Below, piece after piece: positions 12,508-31,888 of a DNA stretch of 64,000 nucleotides (the stretch's first letter is position 1; each line of letters begins with the position of its first letter). The notes under the pieces were generated by a model that made no database searches, was not told the DNA's origin, and saw nothing but the letters and a program-made list of their open reading frames with translations. This DNA comes from Escherichia phage GEP101, in sequence record PQ036202, one strand, 5' to 3'. The translations under genes and the position numbers were made by a program.

Positions 12508-17891
<5,384 letters not shown>

Positions 17892-20522: not shown

Positions 20523-21698
20523 ATGGCAGCAGGTGAAATTCAAATTAGTGCCTTGCCACAAGCGGCCTTACCAATTGATTTGAGTGATATCTTCCATCTT
20601 AAGCAAGGTGTTGAGGATAAAAGATGTACGCTTGAACAGTTGTTAGCACCTCACACATCTTTGAGGAATAACCCTCATGGTGTAACTAAATCACAAGTTG
20701 GTCTTGATAATGTTATTAACTCACTCCAATTGGTCGCAGCTAATAACTTGTCAGACATTGTAGATGTTGCTGAGGCAAGAGCAAATCTACAGATTATGTC
20801 GTCAGATGAAGTGAATAACTTAATCCAGCAACATATTGACGACAAAAGTAACCCACACAATACAACGAAAGCACAGGTTGGGTTAAGTAATGTTCAGAAC
20901 TGGACAACATCCAACCTGTACAATGAAGATGCTGATAAGTATGCTACCGCGAGAGCAGTGAATAATCTATACAAAGCTATCCAAGCATCTTATCCAGTAG
21001 GAACTATTCATCTGTCTGTTAATTCTGCTAACCCATCCACTTACCTGCTTTGTGGAGGCACTTGGGAGTTAGTCTCTAAAGGTAGGGCGTTAGTTGGTTA
21101 TGATACAGATTCTCGACCTGTTGGTTCAACGTTTGGTTCTCAGACTGTAGCGTTAACAAATAATAATTTACCAACACATACTCACTCTATCTATTTAACA
21201 GGTGGTGGTCATACACACTCTGCAAGTGTATCTGTCTCCAGTTTTGATTATGGTTCAAGAAGTACATCAACTTTCGATTATGGTACGAAGGCAACCGATG
21301 GTGCTGGTGCTCACGCTCACACGTTTAGTGGTACAACAAGTAATGAGGGTAACCATAACCATAGAGTACCTATGAGGGGTAACGACAGAGGTGGGTCAAA
21401 CGCTATTACTGCATCCGCTGATGCTGGTGTTGGGTATGCTGTGTATACTGATTTGGCTGGTGCTCACACTCATAGCTTCTCAGGCACGACTGCATCATCT
21501 GGTTATCATAGCCATACTGTTGCAATTGGTGCTCACAGCCACACTGTTAATATTGGTTCACATAGTCATACAGGTACTGTTACTGTTTCTAGTTCAGAGC
21601 ATACACACTCAGGAACATCTGGTTCTGTTGGTGGTGGGCAGGCTTTCAGTGTTGAGCAGCCATCTTTTGTAGTATATGTGTGGCAGAGGACAGCTTAA
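20523..21698 (+). CDS. tail fibre protein with fibre repeats and HxH-rich C-terminal domain
   Basis: Repeated NPH..TK.QVGL.NV motifs, multiple H-x-H triplets (HTHS, AHAHTF, AHTHSF, HSHT, AHSHT, HSHT, EHTHS), C-terminus ...YVWQRTA. Confidence 0.6.
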   Translation: MAAGEIQISALPQAALPIDLSDIFHLKQGVEDKRCTLEQLLAPHTSLRNNPHGVTKSQVGLDNVINSLQLVAANNLSDIVDVAEARANLQIMSSDEVNNLIQQHIDDKSNPHNTTKAQVGLSNVQNWTTSNLYNEDADKYATARAVNNLYKAIQASYPVGTIHLSVNSANPSTYLLCGGTWELVSKGRALVGYDTDSRPVGSTFGSQTVALTNNNLPTHTHSIYLTGGGHTHSASVSVSSFDYGSRSTSTFDYGTKATDGAGAHAHTFSGTTSNEGNHNHRVPMRGNDRGGSNAITASADAGVGYAVYTDLAGAHTHSFSGTTASSGYHSHTVAIGAHSHTVNIGSHSHTGTVTVSSSEHTHSGTSGSVGGGQAFSVEQPSFVVYVWQRTA

Positions 21699-26505: not shown

Positions 26506-27021
26506 CTATTTAACCTCAAAAACTGGCTCAAGAACCAATATAAAGTCCACACAGTCATCTTCTTCATCCAGAATACCATCAAAGTTCTTAGGAACGAAGT
26601 CGAAGAGGCTCATAACAAAGCAGTCAGAAGTAACCCTAATAGTGCCTCCCATATTCTCTACAGTCAACACTGTACGGCTTTCTTTTACCTCTCTCAAGAG
26701 ATTACTCACAAAGTCATCTAGGAAGTACTTCATTAGTGACTTAAAGCCTTTAGGGTAGTCTGTACCAGAGTATGTTTCAATCTGAGGTACAAGCTTAACA
26801 TTTATGATAGTCTTTGCTAAGAATGTGCTAGAGAACATGCTATCAGGTAGCTTGCAAACAATCTTTCCAGTGCCTTCATGCTCAATCTCAACAAAACCAG
26901 CTTCGTCGCCACATGTAACTATTTTAAAAGATGCTTCATTCTCACACTGTGAAGCCATAAACTTTTTAAGCATCACTTTAAGGAAATCTGCATGAGCATC
27001 TTGTAAGTAGATATCAATCAT
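26506..27021 (-). CDS. hypothetical protein
   Basis: 171-aa ORF in leftward operon. Confidence 0.4.
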   Translation of the reverse strand: MIDIYLQDAHADFLKVMLKKFMASQCENEASFKIVTCGDEAGFVEIEHEGTGKIVCKLPDSMFSSTFLAKTIINVKLVPQIETYSGTDYPKGFKSLMKYFLDDFVSNLLREVKESRTVLTVENMGGTIRVTSDCFVMSLFDFVPKNFDGILDEEDDCVDFILVLEPVFEVK

Positions 27022-27034
27022 AGTTAATCACCTA

Positions 27035-27394
27035 TTATGGGAACAGACACTTGATGTCATCATTTTTGAAAACGAAACTTGTGTAGTTGTGACCATCAAC
27101 ATCCAGCCAAACAGCCTGAACATCTACACCATCAAGATTCTGGTAAAGCTCTTTGATGAAGTGGTCTTTTACAACCTGACTGCTAGTTGTTTCCAGCTTA
27201 ATGTTAGAGATTGCTGAACCTACAGCCATATAACCCATGACACGTTTCTTCTCAGTATGCTTAATCTTACCATCTTTGTAAGCCATAATGAGATTGGAAA
27301 GAATCTTCACACCATAATACTTTTCAAGGTGAGTAGGTACACCATAAAAACCTAATGCAAAGTTTTCAGAGTGGATAATGTTTTCACGTTTCAT
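27035..27394 (-). CDS. hypothetical protein
   Basis: 119-aa ORF in leftward operon. Confidence 0.4.
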   Translation of the reverse strand: MKRENIIHSENFALGFYGVPTHLEKYYGVKILSNLIMAYKDGKIKHTEKKRVMGYMAVGSAISNIKLETTSSQVVKDHFIKELYQNLDGVDVQAVWLDVDGHNYTSFVFKNDDIKCLFP

Positions 27395-27395
27395 A

Positions 27396-27695
27396 TTAAT
27401 CTGCCAGCCTTAAATTAAAATTAACACCAAATTTTTCGCATACCTCCAACATATACTCAAGGGATACATTACCAGTGAGGTGGATTATGTTGGATACACG
27501 AGCCTGAGAGATACCGCAAATTTTAGCAACTTGCTCTTGAGAAAGACCTCTGGATTTAATCTCTCTCTTAAAACGATGTGCAACGAAATCTCTCATTTCG
27601 TCTACATCCATTGGACAAATATAACTCTCCATTTCAGCCTCTCTGTCAGCCTCCCAATCATCTTGTGGAGCATAGGGGTCAAAAACCTCATTCAT
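27396..27695 (-). CDS. XRE-family helix-turn-helix transcriptional regulator
   Basis: LSQEQVAKICGISQARVSNI HTH motif; start taken at internal ATG 27695 to avoid overlap with upstream ORF. Confidence 0.6.
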   Translation of the reverse strand: MNEVFDPYAPQDDWEADREAEMESYICPMDVDEMRDFVAHRFKREIKSRGLSQEQVAKICGISQARVSNIIHLTGNVSLEYMLEVCEKFGVNFNLRLAD

Positions 27696-27900
27696 CTTTC
27701 TTCTTCCGTTTTCGTGAAGTGTCAATCAATGAATCTATGTTTGTAGCCCTAACCTTTTCACGTTCATCATTAAGATAATCATCAAGAGCCTTCTCAATCT
27801 GTGAATCATCTTGACAGATGACTGTAAAGACTGTAAAGCCGTCTGTATCATCAATTATCTTACCATAACCGCTTCTGGGATGTAACTTTTTAAGAGCCAT
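27688..27900 (-). CDS. hypothetical protein
   Basis: 70-aa ORF with basic C-terminus. Confidence 0.35.
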   Translation of the reverse strand: MALKKLHPRSGYGKIIDDTDGFTVFTVICQDDSQIEKALDDYLNDEREKVRATNIDSLIDTSRKRKKKDE

Positions 27901-27901
27901 A

Positions 27902-28285
27902 TCAAATACCTGTGCAGCTTCTGTTTTCTAAGAAATACTCAACACCATACATAGCTTTTTGCATCAAATCTTCTTTAAACTGGATACGATGATTGAGCAT
28001 AGCCTGTACATCAATATCCTCATGGTGCTTCTCTTTAATGTTTGCAGATTGCAGGAAATACTCTGCAAGAACACGATACTGATAGTCAGTTACTTTATCA
28101 GTCATCTCTGTTAAAGACTCTTCAGAGATTGGTTTAAGTAACTCACCATTAGCCAGAGCAACACCTTTAACAATCTGACAAGTATCTTCTGGAACACCTG
28201 ATAAGTCCACATTCGGGAGTTCTGTTGCATTGACTGGTAAATTCATTGCCATAACCATTGCAGCAGCTAATAAAATCTTTTTCAT
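27902..28285 (-). CDS. secreted/periplasmic protein with N-terminal signal peptide
   Basis: MKKILLAAAMVMAMNLPVNA signal-peptide-like N-terminus. Confidence 0.45.
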   Translation of the reverse strand: MKKILLAAAMVMAMNLPVNATELPNVDLSGVPEDTCQIVKGVALANGELLKPISEESLTEMTDKVTDYQYRVLAEYFLQSANIKEKHHEDIDVQAMLNHRIQFKEDLMQKAMYGVEYFLENRSCTGI

Positions 28286-28329
28286 AATGACCCCAAAGTT
28301 ATATTAAATTTTGTATTACATTGAGTATA

Positions 28330-28358
28330 AAAATAAGCTATAACACCTGACTTGTCAA
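28330..28358 (-). promoter_or_regulatory. candidate sigma70-like promoter (TTGACA-N17-TATTTT) for secreted-protein gene
   Basis: Minus-strand TTGACA at 28358..28353, weak -10 at 28335..28330. Confidence 0.3.
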
Positions 28359-28416
28359 CAGACTTTATAGCTTATTTGGCAGATTTTTTATAAGGCTACT
28401 GCCATCCTTCCATACA

Positions 28417-28436
28417 TTACCTTACCTTACCTTACC
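28417..28436. repeat. pentanucleotide tandem repeat (TTACC)x4 on + strand, GGTAA on - strand
   Basis: Direct read: TTACCTTACCTTACCTTACC in 302-bp intergenic region. Confidence 0.6.
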
Positions 28437-28553
28437 AGACCACACCATGCAAAACCAGACTTCACATCACCCGACTGTGCAATACTTCACTTAAAAACCC
28501 TCTTAAAAGACTCTTAAGTGATGCTGGTGAGTACCCGTTGGTTTATGCTGCTC

Positions 28554-28581
28554 AGTATACTCACCAAATTTTCTATGTCAA
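28554..28581 (-). promoter_or_regulatory. candidate sigma70-like promoter (TTGACA-N16-TATACT)
   Basis: Minus-strand TTGACA 28581..28576 and TATACT 28559..28554 just downstream of ligase stop. Confidence 0.35.
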
Positions 28582-28587
28582 CAACTT

Positions 28588-29688
28588 TTATTCATAATCT
28601 CGTATAACTAACCCAACAGGGAACTGTAAAGAACCTTTACGAGTCATCTTCTGGAACTGAACCGTCAAAGGTTTCCCGATAAACTCTTCAGGATGTTCAG
28701 CAAGATACTGTTTCTTCTCATGAGTAGTCTTCCATGAGACATCTACAAAGACGTTAGGAAGAGTCTCTACAACGAACTTGCCATGACCACGTTTATCGGT
28801 CTTTACACCAGTCACTTTAAACTCTTCAGTGTGCATCTTCTTGTGCTTAATCAAGAAGTATGAACGGTGACAACACTCATAGAAGGAGTCTTCAGAGATT
28901 GAACGGTACATTGCACCTTCAAACTGAGCTTCAACCCACTTATCATGGGCTTCATCAAACTCTTCCCAAGAATTTACACGACGAGACTTAACAGGAACAA
29001 CTTTACAGCCATCTCTGAAGTCATTCAATGGTGAAGTCTCAATAATGTCTCTACGCTCAGGCCACGTCTTAGTACTGTCACAAATATCGTACCAGTAGAA
29101 CTGGAGTAGATGTCGGTCTGGATTGTCAGCATTCTTAATCATAGACACAATATCTTCTAAGTCCCAACCATGAGCATAAATCTCACCATCAAAGTCTTCG
29201 ACTTGTGGATGCAATTTAAGCAACAAAAGCAAATCTGGGATTAGTTCTGCTGGGACGTTGTAAATAGTATTCTCACGAGAATAAGCCGTGAAGCTAACTA
29301 AATCAGCATCTCTTGAAATTCTACAACGAACACCATCAAGTTTCGGTTGAGCATCAGCAGGGAACTTCAAATACTTTGCATGACTAACCTTTGCAGCATC
29401 ATGAGCAAGCTGCACACCTACCTTCTCAGTATTCTGTGCAGACTCTTTTGTGTAAGCATAACCTTTGCGTTCAACTTGCTTTTTATACTTAGCAGCAACT
29501 TCAAAGAGAGCTTGCTGTTCAGCGTTACGCTCATTCTTTTTACCGATGTTTTTAGGTTCTGCTGTATACTCTTCAAACATCATCTTGCCATTTTCTTTAC
29601 CGTAGGTTGTAATAACTTTGTCACCTACAGCAACGCATGACCAGACGTTAAAAGAGCCGTCTTTATTTTGTTTGTACAGTATTGTCAT
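28588..29688 (-). CDS. ATP-dependent DNA ligase
   Basis: Adenylation motif KLDGVR (KxDG) and overall T7-like ligase size. Confidence 0.8.
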   Translation of the reverse strand: MTILYKQNKDGSFNVWSCVAVGDKVITTYGKENGKMMFEEYTAEPKNIGKKNERNAEQQALFEVAAKYKKQVERKGYAYTKESAQNTEKVGVQLAHDAAKVSHAKYLKFPADAQPKLDGVRCRISRDADLVSFTAYSRENTIYNVPAELIPDLLLLLKLHPQVEDFDGEIYAHGWDLEDIVSMIKNADNPDRHLLQFYWYDICDSTKTWPERRDIIETSPLNDFRDGCKVVPVKSRRVNSWEEFDEAHDKWVEAQFEGAMYRSISEDSFYECCHRSYFLIKHKKMHTEEFKVTGVKTDKRGHGKFVVETLPNVFVDVSWKTTHEKKQYLAEHPEEFIGKPLTVQFQKMTRKGSLQFPVGLVIRDYE

Positions 29689-29891
29689 TTTCTCTTACCA
29701 CCAATTTCTACGTCAATAACTTGAACATCACCAGCAACATCGAACTTATGGATGATGCTTTCCACAGTGTAAGTCCAACCATCAATGCGAACCAACTCAC
29801 CTTCCCGTGGGACTATTGGATTACGTTGAGCTACGGTTGTAGTGGAGTGAACAACATCATAACAGTAGATATAGTTTACTAGGACTTCCAT
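29685..29891 (-). CDS. hypothetical protein
   Basis: Start moved to internal ATG 29891 with GAGG RBS to remove overlap with lipoprotein gene. Confidence 0.35.
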   Translation of the reverse strand: MEVLVNYIYCYDVVHSTTTVAQRNPIVPREGELVRIDGWTYTVESIIHKFDVAGDVQVIDVEIGGKRK

Positions 29892-29901
29892 CTTGAAAAC
29901 C

Positions 29902-30138
29902 TCACTCAATAACAGTAGTGTGTGATTGACCATTTTTGCCATAGCTATAAGATGTTGTTGTTTGAGAGTTTGGACATCTGACAACAACAATATCTCTGCT
30001 TATGGCATCACCATGTAACTTATAGACTTTGCAATCTTGCATCTCTGGTGGGAGGCTATAAGAAGCATTTTTATCTTCATAAGAAGGGTTGCACCCAGCT
30101 AGAAAAATAACACCAAGTGCAATTACTGCTTTCCACAT
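29902..30138 (-). CDS. small lipoprotein
   Basis: MWKAVIALGVIFLAGC lipobox after ATG 30138 with AGGAGAGG RBS; 78 aa. Confidence 0.5.
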   Translation of the reverse strand: MWKAVIALGVIFLAGCNPSYEDKNASYSLPPEMQDCKVYKLHGDAISRDIVVVRCPNSQTTTSYSYGKNGQSHTTVIE

Positions 30139-30794: not shown

Positions 30795-31328
30795 TCAAGA
30801 TAGTTTTGCAAACTCTCCGTGGAGTTTAATAGCAGCTTCACAGTAAGCTTTATGGGCTTCTTCTGGTGTGTCATGATAACCTAAAAACATCTTCTTACCT
30901 TTATAACTTATCTGTGCGACCCACTTACCAGACTTCTTCTTAAGACTTACACCCTTGTACCCAGATTTATTGGTGACTGGTTTACCTTTATTCCAAGCAC
31001 TTTGAAAGTCATCTGCTTCCCTTAAGTTTACAATCCTGTTGTCAAGTGAGTCTCCGTTGATATGGTCAATGATACCTTTTGGCATCTTGCCATACACGTA
31101 AAGCCATGCGAGTCTGTGTGCTTTATGTGCTTTCTTGTCAAAATAGATACTAACCTGTTTATGACCACTTGAATCAGTCTGGATATTACCTGCCACCTTT
31201 CCTGCATAATTACTGTTAAAAACACTAACAGCTCTTGATTTACCTTCTCTACGAAGCCAAGTAAAGACCCCTGTTTCGGGGTCATAGTGCAGCAGCTCCT
31301 TTAAACGTTTTTGTAAAATTAAATCCAT
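30795..31328 (-). CDS. HNH homing endonuclease with AP2-like DNA-binding domain
   Basis: IDHINGDSLDNRIVNLREA HNH motif; YKGVS...KWVAQISYKGKKMFLGYHDTPEEA AP2-like; start 3 nt after DNA polymerase stop. Confidence 0.75.
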   Translation of the reverse strand: MDLILQKRLKELLHYDPETGVFTWLRREGKSRAVSVFNSNYAGKVAGNIQTDSSGHKQVSIYFDKKAHKAHRLAWLYVYGKMPKGIIDHINGDSLDNRIVNLREADDFQSAWNKGKPVTNKSGYKGVSLKKKSGKWVAQISYKGKKMFLGYHDTPEEAHKAYCEAAIKLHGEFAKLS

Positions 31329-31331
31329 TAA

Positions 31332-31888
31332 TCAATGTACCTCATACCAGCTCTTACCAACCTTTGCTGTACCAGTTACAAGTGTTTCTTTCCTCAAACC
31401 TAAGTTTTTTGAAGCTTGTCCATACATCCAGTCAGCAATTGCTTTCATATCATGTGTCATACCCTCTGGACATTCCCAACTATTTTCATCGTGATATGCC
31501 AGAAGTAACCTTGCTCCGATAGCTGGTTTTCGAGCATTCAGTTTTGTCAGGCCATCTTCACAGGCTTTTCTTGCTGCTAGGTTGATGGCCTCATTCTGAA
31601 TCTGTGCTTCCGAACTCATCAGGAGGTAGTTCAGTAGTTTATGTGGAGATTTGCACCATATCCATGCTCCAGCGACCCTGATATAACCACCTTTAGCAAT
31701 TGAAGAGTTCTTCCCAAAAACCTCTTCCAGAGCCTTTTTAGACACCTTAAAATCAGCTTCTAAGCTATCAAGTAACTTCTTAATCTTTGGCAAACGCATA
31801 TAGTAAGTTTGTTTAGTCAATGCACCTTCTTCCGTAGATGATGCCTTGATAGTTTTTGCAAACTTCTCATCGCCAGCCCCGAACAATA
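31332..31888 (-). CDS. DNA polymerase family A, exon 2 (C-terminal, motif B second half and motif C)
   Basis: LFGAGDEKFAK aligns with T7 pol FLYGAGDEK; HDE motif C; no ATG at exon start (ORF track begins at TTG). Confidence 0.75.

Follow-up and report, generated by a model that had tools for sequence, protein, structure and literature searches.

A candidate orphan vrRNA gene with a vipr-matching guide in the ligase-ORF87 interval of a Felix O1-like phage

Introduction

VIPR (Viral Interference Programmable Repeat), the subject of two 2026 bioRxiv preprints from one laboratory, has been described as an RNA-guided DNA-binding system older than CRISPR (clustered regularly interspaced short palindromic repeats) and at work in phage-against-phage conflict (10.64898/2026.04.26.720920; 10.64898/2026.04.26.720927). 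Its components are Vipr, a small, ancestral RAMP-like protein, an accessory gene, vap, and guide RNAs (vrRNAs) of ~100 nucleotides (nt), each made of 9-16 YNNGG (GGY/NN) repeats followed by an invariant 3′ tail (10.64898/2026.04.26.720920; 10.64898/2026.04.26.720927). Each Vipr protomer takes up one GGY in a helical filament covering at least 12 units, and the NN dinucleotides pair with double-stranded DNA, every third target base being skipped, which leads to transcriptional repression; according to the structural preprint, DNA unwinding starts at the pseudoknot-proximal end (subunits 8-12) and proceeds 3′ to 5′ (10.64898/2026.04.26.720920; 10.64898/2026.04.26.720927). The vrRNAs of phage SUSP1 are ~100-nt species by small-RNA sequencing and co-purify with Vipr, and guides of the SUSP1 clade are reported to target a satellite phage (10.64898/2026.04.26.720920; 10.64898/2026.04.26.720927). 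The element class is thus already known from these preprints. Escherichia phage GEP101 (PQ036202), of which a stretch of 64,000 nt, here called the window, was analysed, carries a 302-nt non-coding interval that appears to hold a vrRNA gene of this clade with no vipr or vap1 in the window, and ten successive units of its guide match vipr itself.

The VIPR discovery pipeline starts from the Vipr protein, so that guide RNAs in Vipr-less genomes are invisible to it. Effector-less guide or repeat RNAs that exploit or jam the effector of another element are familiar from phage-borne orphan CRISPR mini-arrays, solitary repeat units and RNA anti-CRISPRs. The present element resembles these as a guide-like RNA that lacks an effector in inter-element conflict. 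It differs in having a pentamer code and a pseudoknot cap in place of a repeat-spacer structure, a different effector family, and repression rather than cleavage as the expected outcome. By analogy only, a conserved triplet every 5 nt with free spacers and one subunit per triplet also recalls the TRAP (trp RNA-binding attenuation protein) sites of the Bacillus trp leader RNA, in which 9-11 (G/U)AG triplets with 2-3-nt spacers are bound by an 11-mer ring. The triplet in the window, however, is GGY and not GAG or UAG, the corresponding protein is a helical RAMP filament and not an 11-mer ring, and the spacers would carry base-pairing information.

The GGY-NN array and its 3′ pseudoknot

The initial annotation had described a 302-bp intergenic region after a ligase stop codon, and its position is confirmed. 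The features that mark it as a vrRNA candidate are these:

28286..28587, non-coding interval of 302 nt between the stop codon of an ATP-dependent DNA ligase gene and the start of the next leftward gene
28491..28412, minus strand, vrRNA-like guide array of 16 in-phase pentamers, the clearest 13 units being 28476..28412
28437..28486, minus strand, guide units 2-11, with the NN dinucleotides AT AC CG GA GA CT TT AT GT CT
28417..28436, minus strand, (GGTAA)4, four units that the IME338/Felix O1 guide does not have, placed just ahead of the constant last unit
28411..28378, minus strand, 34-nt 3′ tail GGAAGGAUGGCAGUAGCCUUAUAAAAAAUCUGCC (= GGAAGGATGGCAGTAGCCTTATAAAAAATCTGCC), invariant and identical to the tail of SUSP1 vrRNA4

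Read on the minus strand from 28491, units 1-8 of the array are AGTGA AGTAT TGCAC AGTCG GGTGA TGTGA AGTCT GGTTT, and units 9-16, ending at 28412, are TGCAT GGTGT GGTCT GGTAA GGTAA GGTAA GGTAA TGTAT. Position 2 is G and position 3 a pyrimidine in all 16 units, position 1 is G in 8/16 and positions 4-5 are free. A period-5 scan for in-phase GT over both strands of the 64 kb found 11-12 of 12-13 successive units here and 6 at the next-best place; the period-5 array is unique in the window and more than chance. With 13-16 units in phase, and with NN variable among close relatives, it falls in the range of 9-16 tandem GGY/NN units that characterizes vrRNAs. The initial annotation had picked out a perfect (GGTAA)4 on the transcribed strand, that is (TTACC)4 on the plus strand, and the repeat is exactly at 28417..28436. 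It is real, but it is only a part of a degenerate GGY-NN array of 13-16 units, with guide information in NN, which had been missed.

Relatives were compared at the interval in 23 IMG/VR contigs and 14 GenBank phages. Unit number and positions 4-5 of their arrays differ while the GGY phase is kept, and both NN and unit number differ even between phages with flanks more than 90% identical. In 68 distinct arrays of relatives the share of units with G at position 1 is 0.69-0.84, C never occurs there, positions 4-5 are free, and position 2 is G in ~0.99 and position 3 T in 0.88 or C in 0.12 of units, statistics that for positions 2-3 are partly fixed by the extraction procedure. A simple microsatellite was rejected on these grounds: in the window as well as in relatives, the 9-12 units flanking the perfect copies are constant at positions 2-3 and variable at 1, 4 and 5. 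The repeat is length-variable, as had been suggested, with four GGTAA units here, three in L004, L018, L019 and L025 and at most two elsewhere among the relatives. The 3′ module GGTAA GGTAA GGTAA TGTAT recurs in L004 and in the last vrRNA of the VIPR-carrying loci L012, L018, L019 and L022, and the (GGTAA)4 block is probably an array extension gained by in-phase recombination or slippage. At 16 units the window array is the longest among the sampled orphan arrays (8-13 units).

A pseudoknot in the 3′ tail of SUSP1-clade vrRNAs has been reported (10.64898/2026.04.26.720920; 10.64898/2026.04.26.720927). In the window it is predicted as an H-type pseudoknot, stem 1 pairing AAGG (28409..28406) with CCUU (28395..28392) and stem 2 pairing GGCAG (28403..28399) with CUGCC (28382..28378), and all nine pairs are intact. 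Across the three tail classes of the phage group 7/9 pairs show compensatory changes, and 99.1% of pseudoknot cells are paired, against 31-46% in slid controls, with 0/500 shuffles reaching the observed score. By these measures the tail is the invariant pseudoknot that caps a vrRNA array. The two inverted repeats singled out in the initial annotation are present, but the structured part that matters is this conserved tail instead.

The SUSP1 (Ounavirinae) locus has the order ligase, vrRNA1, vipr (195 aa), vap1 (146 aa), vrRNA2, vrRNA3, vrRNA4 and ORF87 homologue. The window shares with SUSP1 vrRNA4 its position between ligase and ORF87 homologue, the strand, a GGY-NN array and the identical 34-nt tail, and its leader hairpin and terminator/promoter hairpin are nearly identical. 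It differs in lacking vipr and vap1 in cis, in having a single vrRNA where SUSP1 has four, and in a guide that matches vipr itself and a (GGTAA)4 block inserted beside the tail. No vipr or vap gene flanks the array in the window, while its position is still syntenic with the SUSP1 VIPR locus. Sequence comparison thus identifies the element as a putative vrRNA homologue of VIPR type II, SUSP1 clade. Two suggestions made for the region, a small RNA and a protein-binding array, hold by homology, in that the SUSP1 counterparts are ~100-nt RNAs and SUSP1 Vipr places one protomer on each pentamer.

Absence of vipr and vap1

Searches of the window by tblastn with SUSP1 Vipr and Vap1 found nothing. 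A Vipr profile built from 120 homologues (37-99% identity) gave a best E of 0.82 against the six-frame open reading frames (ORFs) of the window, the control, SUSP1 Vipr, scoring 2.5e-86. IME338 shares with the window 94.4% identity over 59 kb and a nearly identical guide; its complete genome lacks Vipr and Vap1 and has this one GGY-NN array only. Since neither gene is found in the 64-kb window or in this complete relative, the vrRNA is filed as an orphan. Ounavirinae records with vipr number ~118, against ~251 with the interval, so that roughly half of the group, including Felix O1, would be in the orphan state.

The words 'orphan' and 'Felix' are absent from the main text of the preprints (supplementary data being outside the scope), where the only related remark is that some P. 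fulva-clade vrRNAs target other VIPR systems (10.64898/2026.04.26.720920; 10.64898/2026.04.26.720927). Neither main text contains the orphan state or vipr-directed orphan guides. The P. fulva-clade vrRNAs and satellite-encoded vrRNAs share with the present element the idea that vrRNAs are turned on rival VIPR systems and that elements may carry vrRNAs of their own, but as far as the main text shows they lie in complete VIPR loci or in satellites. The carrier here is a lytic phage without Vipr, so that, unlike theirs, its guide must rely on the target's own protein.

An intermediate architecture is seen in L007, L011, L017, L021 and L025, which have two vrRNA-like arrays, one with a T2-type and one with a T4-type tail, no vipr or vap1, a ligase-ORF87 interval of 420-608 nt, and guides that match vipr at no more than 75%.

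Matches of the guide in vipr

Targets were sought under the published rule of a 1-nt skip, each GGY being replaced by one wildcard, in 16 vipr-vap1 operons with 300 shuffled-guide controls per guide; the preprint cut-off for a natural target is at least 80% of NN positions. Units 2-11 of the window match vipr nt 469-497 (codons 157-166, ITREELLMVL) at 19/20 positions (95%) in the L016 allele. None of the 300 shuffled guides reaches 19, the shuffle maximum being 16. The NN dinucleotides fall on codon positions 1-2 and the skipped base is the wobble position. Guides of sibling orphan arrays match the same or other sites of the gene:

Felix O1, skuden and DE17, 20/22, vipr nt 469-497, the same site as the window
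IME338, 19/22, vipr nt 469-497, the same site as the window
JH2, 19/20, vipr nt 1-29, on the opposite strand, the start codon being covered
EC6, 16/18, vipr nt 37-62
ULIM9, 20/24, vipr nt 362-396

Those sibling guides that have a vipr match reach 83-95%, which shuffled guides never do, and in an unbiased scan of Ounavirinae DNA (314 kb) every top hit of several orphan guides lies in the vipr gene of VIPR-carrying relatives. Within the window the window guide has no self-target (17/26, equal to shuffles). Among 46 distinct vrRNAs from the 16 VIPR-carrying loci none matches vipr-vap1 above 75%, and most lie at 53-68%. No complete locus therefore shows an autoregulatory guide of which the vipr-directed ones could be a remnant.

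Guide-target co-variation and a candidate counter-guide

Guide alleles mirror vipr alleles, which by sequence looks like the signs of an arms race. At vipr codon 159 the alleles are AAA, AGA and CGA; the guide unit that reads it has AA in Felix O1 and DE17, AG in IME338 and P219, and CG in the window. Codon 163 is TTG or CTG, and guides have TT or CT. Non-wobble polymorphisms are concentrated in the four target sites, which hold 9/15 of them in 81/392 of the non-wobble positions (hypergeometric p = 7.8e-4), and wobble polymorphisms show no enrichment there (p = 0.19).

A candidate guide in the opposite direction also occurs. The upstream vrRNA of the VIPR-carrying locus L019 (IMGVR_UViG_3300045988_009865), with NN CT GC AG CT CT CC CG AT AT GT GA, matches the window at 15216..15247 on the plus strand at 20/22, and 0/500 shuffles exceed 17. 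This candidate protospacer lies in the gene at 14735..15532, just after the tape-measure gene. The match is in phase with codon positions 2-3, not the usual 1-2, and IME338 matches at the same gene at 18/22. A perfect target of the L019 guide was not found in IMG/VR. Neither the interval nor vipr-vap1 DNA had a BLAST match in 5,426 complete E. coli genomes; the absence of vipr-vap1 there indicates that the targets are the phage-borne genes. The satellite phage named in the preprint as the main SUSP1 target was not located through the same 5,426 genomes.

Promoters, hairpins and leader

The array is surrounded by elements that are near-invariant in the relatives, namely an upstream promoter (P1), two hairpins, the 34 nt after the array, a 13-bp hairpin and a downstream promoter (P2). 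In the window they are:

28581..28554, minus strand, promoter P1, TTGACA-16-TATACT, sigma-70-like with 11/12 consensus matches, right after the ligase stop codon
28525..28566, minus strand, conserved hairpin GGTGAGTA ... TACTCACC with 9-nt arms, 100% complementary and present in the minimum-free-energy fold
28487..28521, minus strand, leader hairpin CACTTAAGAGTCTTTTAAGAGGGTTTTTAAGTG, inverted repeat CACTTAA/TTAAGTG with arms 28487-28494 and 28514-28521
28331-28343 and 28365-28377, perfect 13-nt inverted repeat AAATAAGCTATAA / TTATAGCTTATTT, which includes GCTATAA/TTATAGC
28331..28377, minus strand, perfect 13-bp hairpin followed by a U-rich run, with the P2 -35 hexamer in its loop, near-identical in all relatives
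28358..28330, minus strand, promoter P2, TTGACA-17-TATTTT, sigma-70-like with 10/12 matches, conserved among relatives

Both promoters had been noted as candidates in the initial annotation. They are the best two of six sites in a 2-kb scan, in which shuffles give 4.9. Both P1 hexamers are conserved among relatives and the same sequence precedes SUSP1 vrRNA1; P1 is likely, as judged from its sequence, to be the start of the vrRNA-bearing transcript. We infer that P2 is the promoter of the downstream gene at 27902..28285. The 13-bp hairpin is a probable terminator of the vrRNA transcript, and its stem has too little G+C for the terminator scan. The 5′ arm of the hairpin at 28525..28566 overlaps the P1 -10 hexamer, so that this hairpin would form only in read-through RNA from the ligase gene. 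Both inverted repeats listed earlier, GCTATAA...TTATAGC and CACTTAA...TTAAGTG, are present, the former within the perfect 13-nt repeat.

RNA folding was one of the checks that had been proposed. The whole interval is mildly unusual only (z about -2.5 against shuffles), and array, tail and terminator together are not (z -1.4). The absence of marked secondary structure in the array region is as expected for a protein-bound guide.

The ~34-nt leader sequence, CACTTAAGAGTCTTCTAAGAGGGTTTTTAAGTGA, is a direct repeat in SUSP1 (L147), where it stands before vrRNA1 and before vrRNA4, and its copies bracket vrRNA1-vipr-vap1-vrRNA2-vrRNA3. Recombination between the two leaders of a SUSP1-like locus would, on sequence grounds, give exactly the solo architecture of the window. 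The leader at 28487..28521 may act in RNA processing or serve as a site of recombination. Homologous recombination at the SUSP1 direct repeat could readily remove or introduce the cassette as a whole when phages co-infect a cell.

Proposed function and alternative explanations

We lean, with slightly better than even confidence, towards the view that the interval encodes an orphan SUSP1-type vrRNA acting in trans against the VIPR systems of rivals. The RNA would be transcribed from P1 as far as the 13-bp hairpin. Where a VIPR-carrying rival infects the same cell, the rival's Vipr would load the window vrRNA and be directed onto the rival's own vipr-vap1 operon, lowering vipr-vap1 expression. 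The vrRNA would also soak up (titrate) Vipr protomers, and either way the rival's VIPR would be blunted. As the target is the effector gene itself, such a guide finds its target only in cells that also contain the effector gene, which makes sense of a guide without an effector. The L019 vrRNA that matches a gene of the window would give such a phage a motive. By the same token a guide that spells vipr implies an RNA that acts only in a cell also infected by a VIPR-carrying relative. The wider proposition, to which we would give an even chance, is that about half of the Felix O1-like phages have discarded the VIPR genes and kept one vipr-aimed guide that commandeers the enemy effector, in an allele-for-allele race in which relatives carry guides against their structural genes.

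Several observations weigh against the trans-acting guide. The full window array matches vipr at only 24/32 (75%) or 19/26 (73%) of positions; this is below the preprint's 80%, and it is mainly for that reason that we give the functional claim for the window copy no more than roughly even odds. The last five units, the four GGTAA and TGTAT, agree with vipr at 4/10 positions. Since unwinding starts at the pseudoknot-proximal end, where these non-matching units sit, the window copy may be a weakened guide, or the added units may merely contribute Vipr-binding capacity. Half of the window units have no G at position 1, as is also the case in functional SUSP1 vrRNA4 (6/12). The vipr match of the L004 guide is borderline and the OPT-SAL01 and Tf guides have none, and exact-pattern scans of IMG/VR and the JGI metagenomes found no perfect target of the window guide. 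The sample is small, with 17 orphan arrays in ~7 guide families and 16 VIPR-carrying loci. The window covers ~64 of the ~86 kb of the phage genome, leaving 22 kb outside it, and the supplement of the preprints may list orphans already. The model needs co-infection with a VIPR-carrying phage, and repression of vipr by Vipr is self-limiting. Expression and processing of the window RNA are predictions from promoter-like and terminator-like sequences, and its loading into Vipr is likewise predicted.

The same facts can be read as an inert relic, in which the vipr-vap1 cassette was lost by leader-leader recombination, the leftover vrRNA gene, still transcribed or merely persisting, is functionless and (GGTAA)4 is unconstrained slippage. 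We consider this unlikely, though far from negligible. The lack of Vipr in cis and the solo architecture fit it, as do the chimera-like look of the window array, IME338-type in its 5′ part and L018-type in its 3′ module, the truncation of the EcF-vB array to 8 units, and the placement of the non-matching units at the end where unwinding begins. A relic would not, however, be expected to keep promoter, leader, tail and terminator near-invariant while NN turns over and GGY stays. Nor does it account for four independent orphan guide families that match four sites of one 588-nt gene, when no VIPR-carrying phage has a vipr-matching guide that could be the source of passive leftovers, or for guide alleles that track vipr alleles with an excess of non-wobble polymorphism at the target sites. 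Inertness is thus possible for the window copy and hard to square with kept signals, NN turnover, convergence and allele tracking. A pure decoy or sponge, in which the GGY string titrates the rival's Vipr, NN is irrelevant and the extra GGTAA units raise capacity, is in our estimate improbable. One protomer per repeat and filaments of at least 12 units would suit it, as would an array that is the longest among the sampled orphans (16 against 8-13 units) and inserted units that carry a perfect GGU. What a sponge leaves unexplained is that the NN of several orphan families spell vipr in frame and co-vary with vipr alleles. Titration is compatible with the trans-acting guide as an addition to it and not as a replacement.

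An ordinary regulatory spacer, with a ligase terminator, a promoter, a structured 5′ leader and a chance microsatellite, would account for the promoter-like and hairpin elements and for a whole interval that folds mildly better than shuffles (z about -2.5). It is scarcely credible in the face of a GGY phase that runs over 65-80 nt, is unique in 64 kb and persists in relatives as the other positions of the units change, and of an architecture equal to that of experimentally defined vrRNAs; no Rfam match supports it. P2 at 28358..28330 lies between the array and the next gene, which puts the array outside the leader of that gene's own promoter, and the long structured leader proposed in the initial annotation is not supported. 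Other candidates were dropped. A TRAP-type attenuator does not fit triplets that are GGU or GGC (also AGU and UGU) and never GAG or UAG, or an enterobacterial host range. A site for a TRAP-like ring protein or a two-tetrad G-quadruplex, both suggested by the 5-nt period, does not fit conserved positions that are G2 and Y3 and not GG alone, a pattern that the Vipr filament explains. For a CRISPR array or RNA anti-CRISPR there are no direct repeats of ~23-50 nt in 28200..28700 and no Rfam CRISPR-DR match. As for a replication origin or R-loop element, to which a G-rich non-template strand after a promoter had pointed, GC skew follows gene orientation with no switch here, and the idea was dropped on the VIPR match. 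A genome terminus or terminal repeat was suggested by the pinkbiff record, which starts in the interval, but what is annotated as 'repeat_region' is the arrays themselves, and the genome records do not share a common start. Shuffling of PeSL-like promoter/stem-loop cassettes, as in T4, is relevant only in that the 34-nt leader repeat may mediate gain or loss of the cassette.

The locus indicates that orphan guides exist, occur commonly in the classic phage group of Felix O1, and are apparently vipr-aimed. If the trans-acting guide is real, the counter-measure would consist of ~115 nt of RNA only (the 16-unit array and the 34-nt tail). It would be a natural case of guide-only parasitism of an RNA-guided effector, with a readable record of guide-target co-evolution. 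The intergenic 'repeats' of Felix O1-type phages should be annotated as vrRNA genes, in which a change of copy number alters the guide.

Distribution and genomic neighbourhood

The 502 bases around the interval match 251 phage records, among them Felix O1 at ~92% identity, and by this resemblance the window is a Felix O1-like phage of the genus Felixounavirus (Ounavirinae). The flanking genes are:

28588..29688, minus strand, ATP-dependent DNA ligase
27902..28285, minus strand, homologue of Felix O1 ORF87, the next leftward gene

The distance from ligase to ORF87 ranges among relatives from 261 nt (EcF-vB) to 2132 nt, and in the long intervals there are as many as five arrays, each of them on the transcribed strand. 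Further copies of the interval were not found elsewhere in the window. The longest small ORFs on either strand of the interval have 8-28 codons; a few deposited records annotate short 'hypothetical proteins' there, and no case is seen for a gene within the interval. The element is absent from Rfam, a permissive-threshold search of 27000..30000 giving no family match and only chance-level snoRNA/miRNA hits, and in the annotations examined the region is unannotated, a 'repeat_region' or a 'hypothetical protein'. Arrays appear as 'repeat_region' or are overlapped by short 'hypothetical protein' coding sequences in MN850603 (pinkbiff), MN850647 (tootiki), PV659053 (P219) and OQ850288 (ULIM9), where vrRNA genes could take their place.

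Similar degenerate arrays, often many in tandem, occur in many unrelated viral contigs among the matches listed in an exact-pattern IMG/VR scan for (GGTNN)6GGT. Long tandem series of degenerate GGTNN arrays among these matches include at least 17 arrays in L124 (3233-4394) and 13 in L046 (2212-3406), and further loci with such series are L036, L035, L043, L052, L056, L117, L123, L131 and L146. Each array in the series (L124, L046 and others) ends in GGTAA GGAAT GGTTT, and the series presumably represent other VIPR types.

Two further features of the window are unrelated to the array. An HNH/AP2-type homing-endonuclease ORF at 30795..31328 on the minus strand adjoins a DNA-polymerase fragment at 31332..31886; in IME338 the polymerase is annotated as two ORFs with an HNH endonuclease ORF just downstream, an arrangement typical of the phage group. 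The top-scoring tandem repeat of the window is a 27-nt repeat at 21500..21571 (2.7 copies, 73% match, Tandem Repeats Finder score 81), which by position is probably within a tail-fibre gene.

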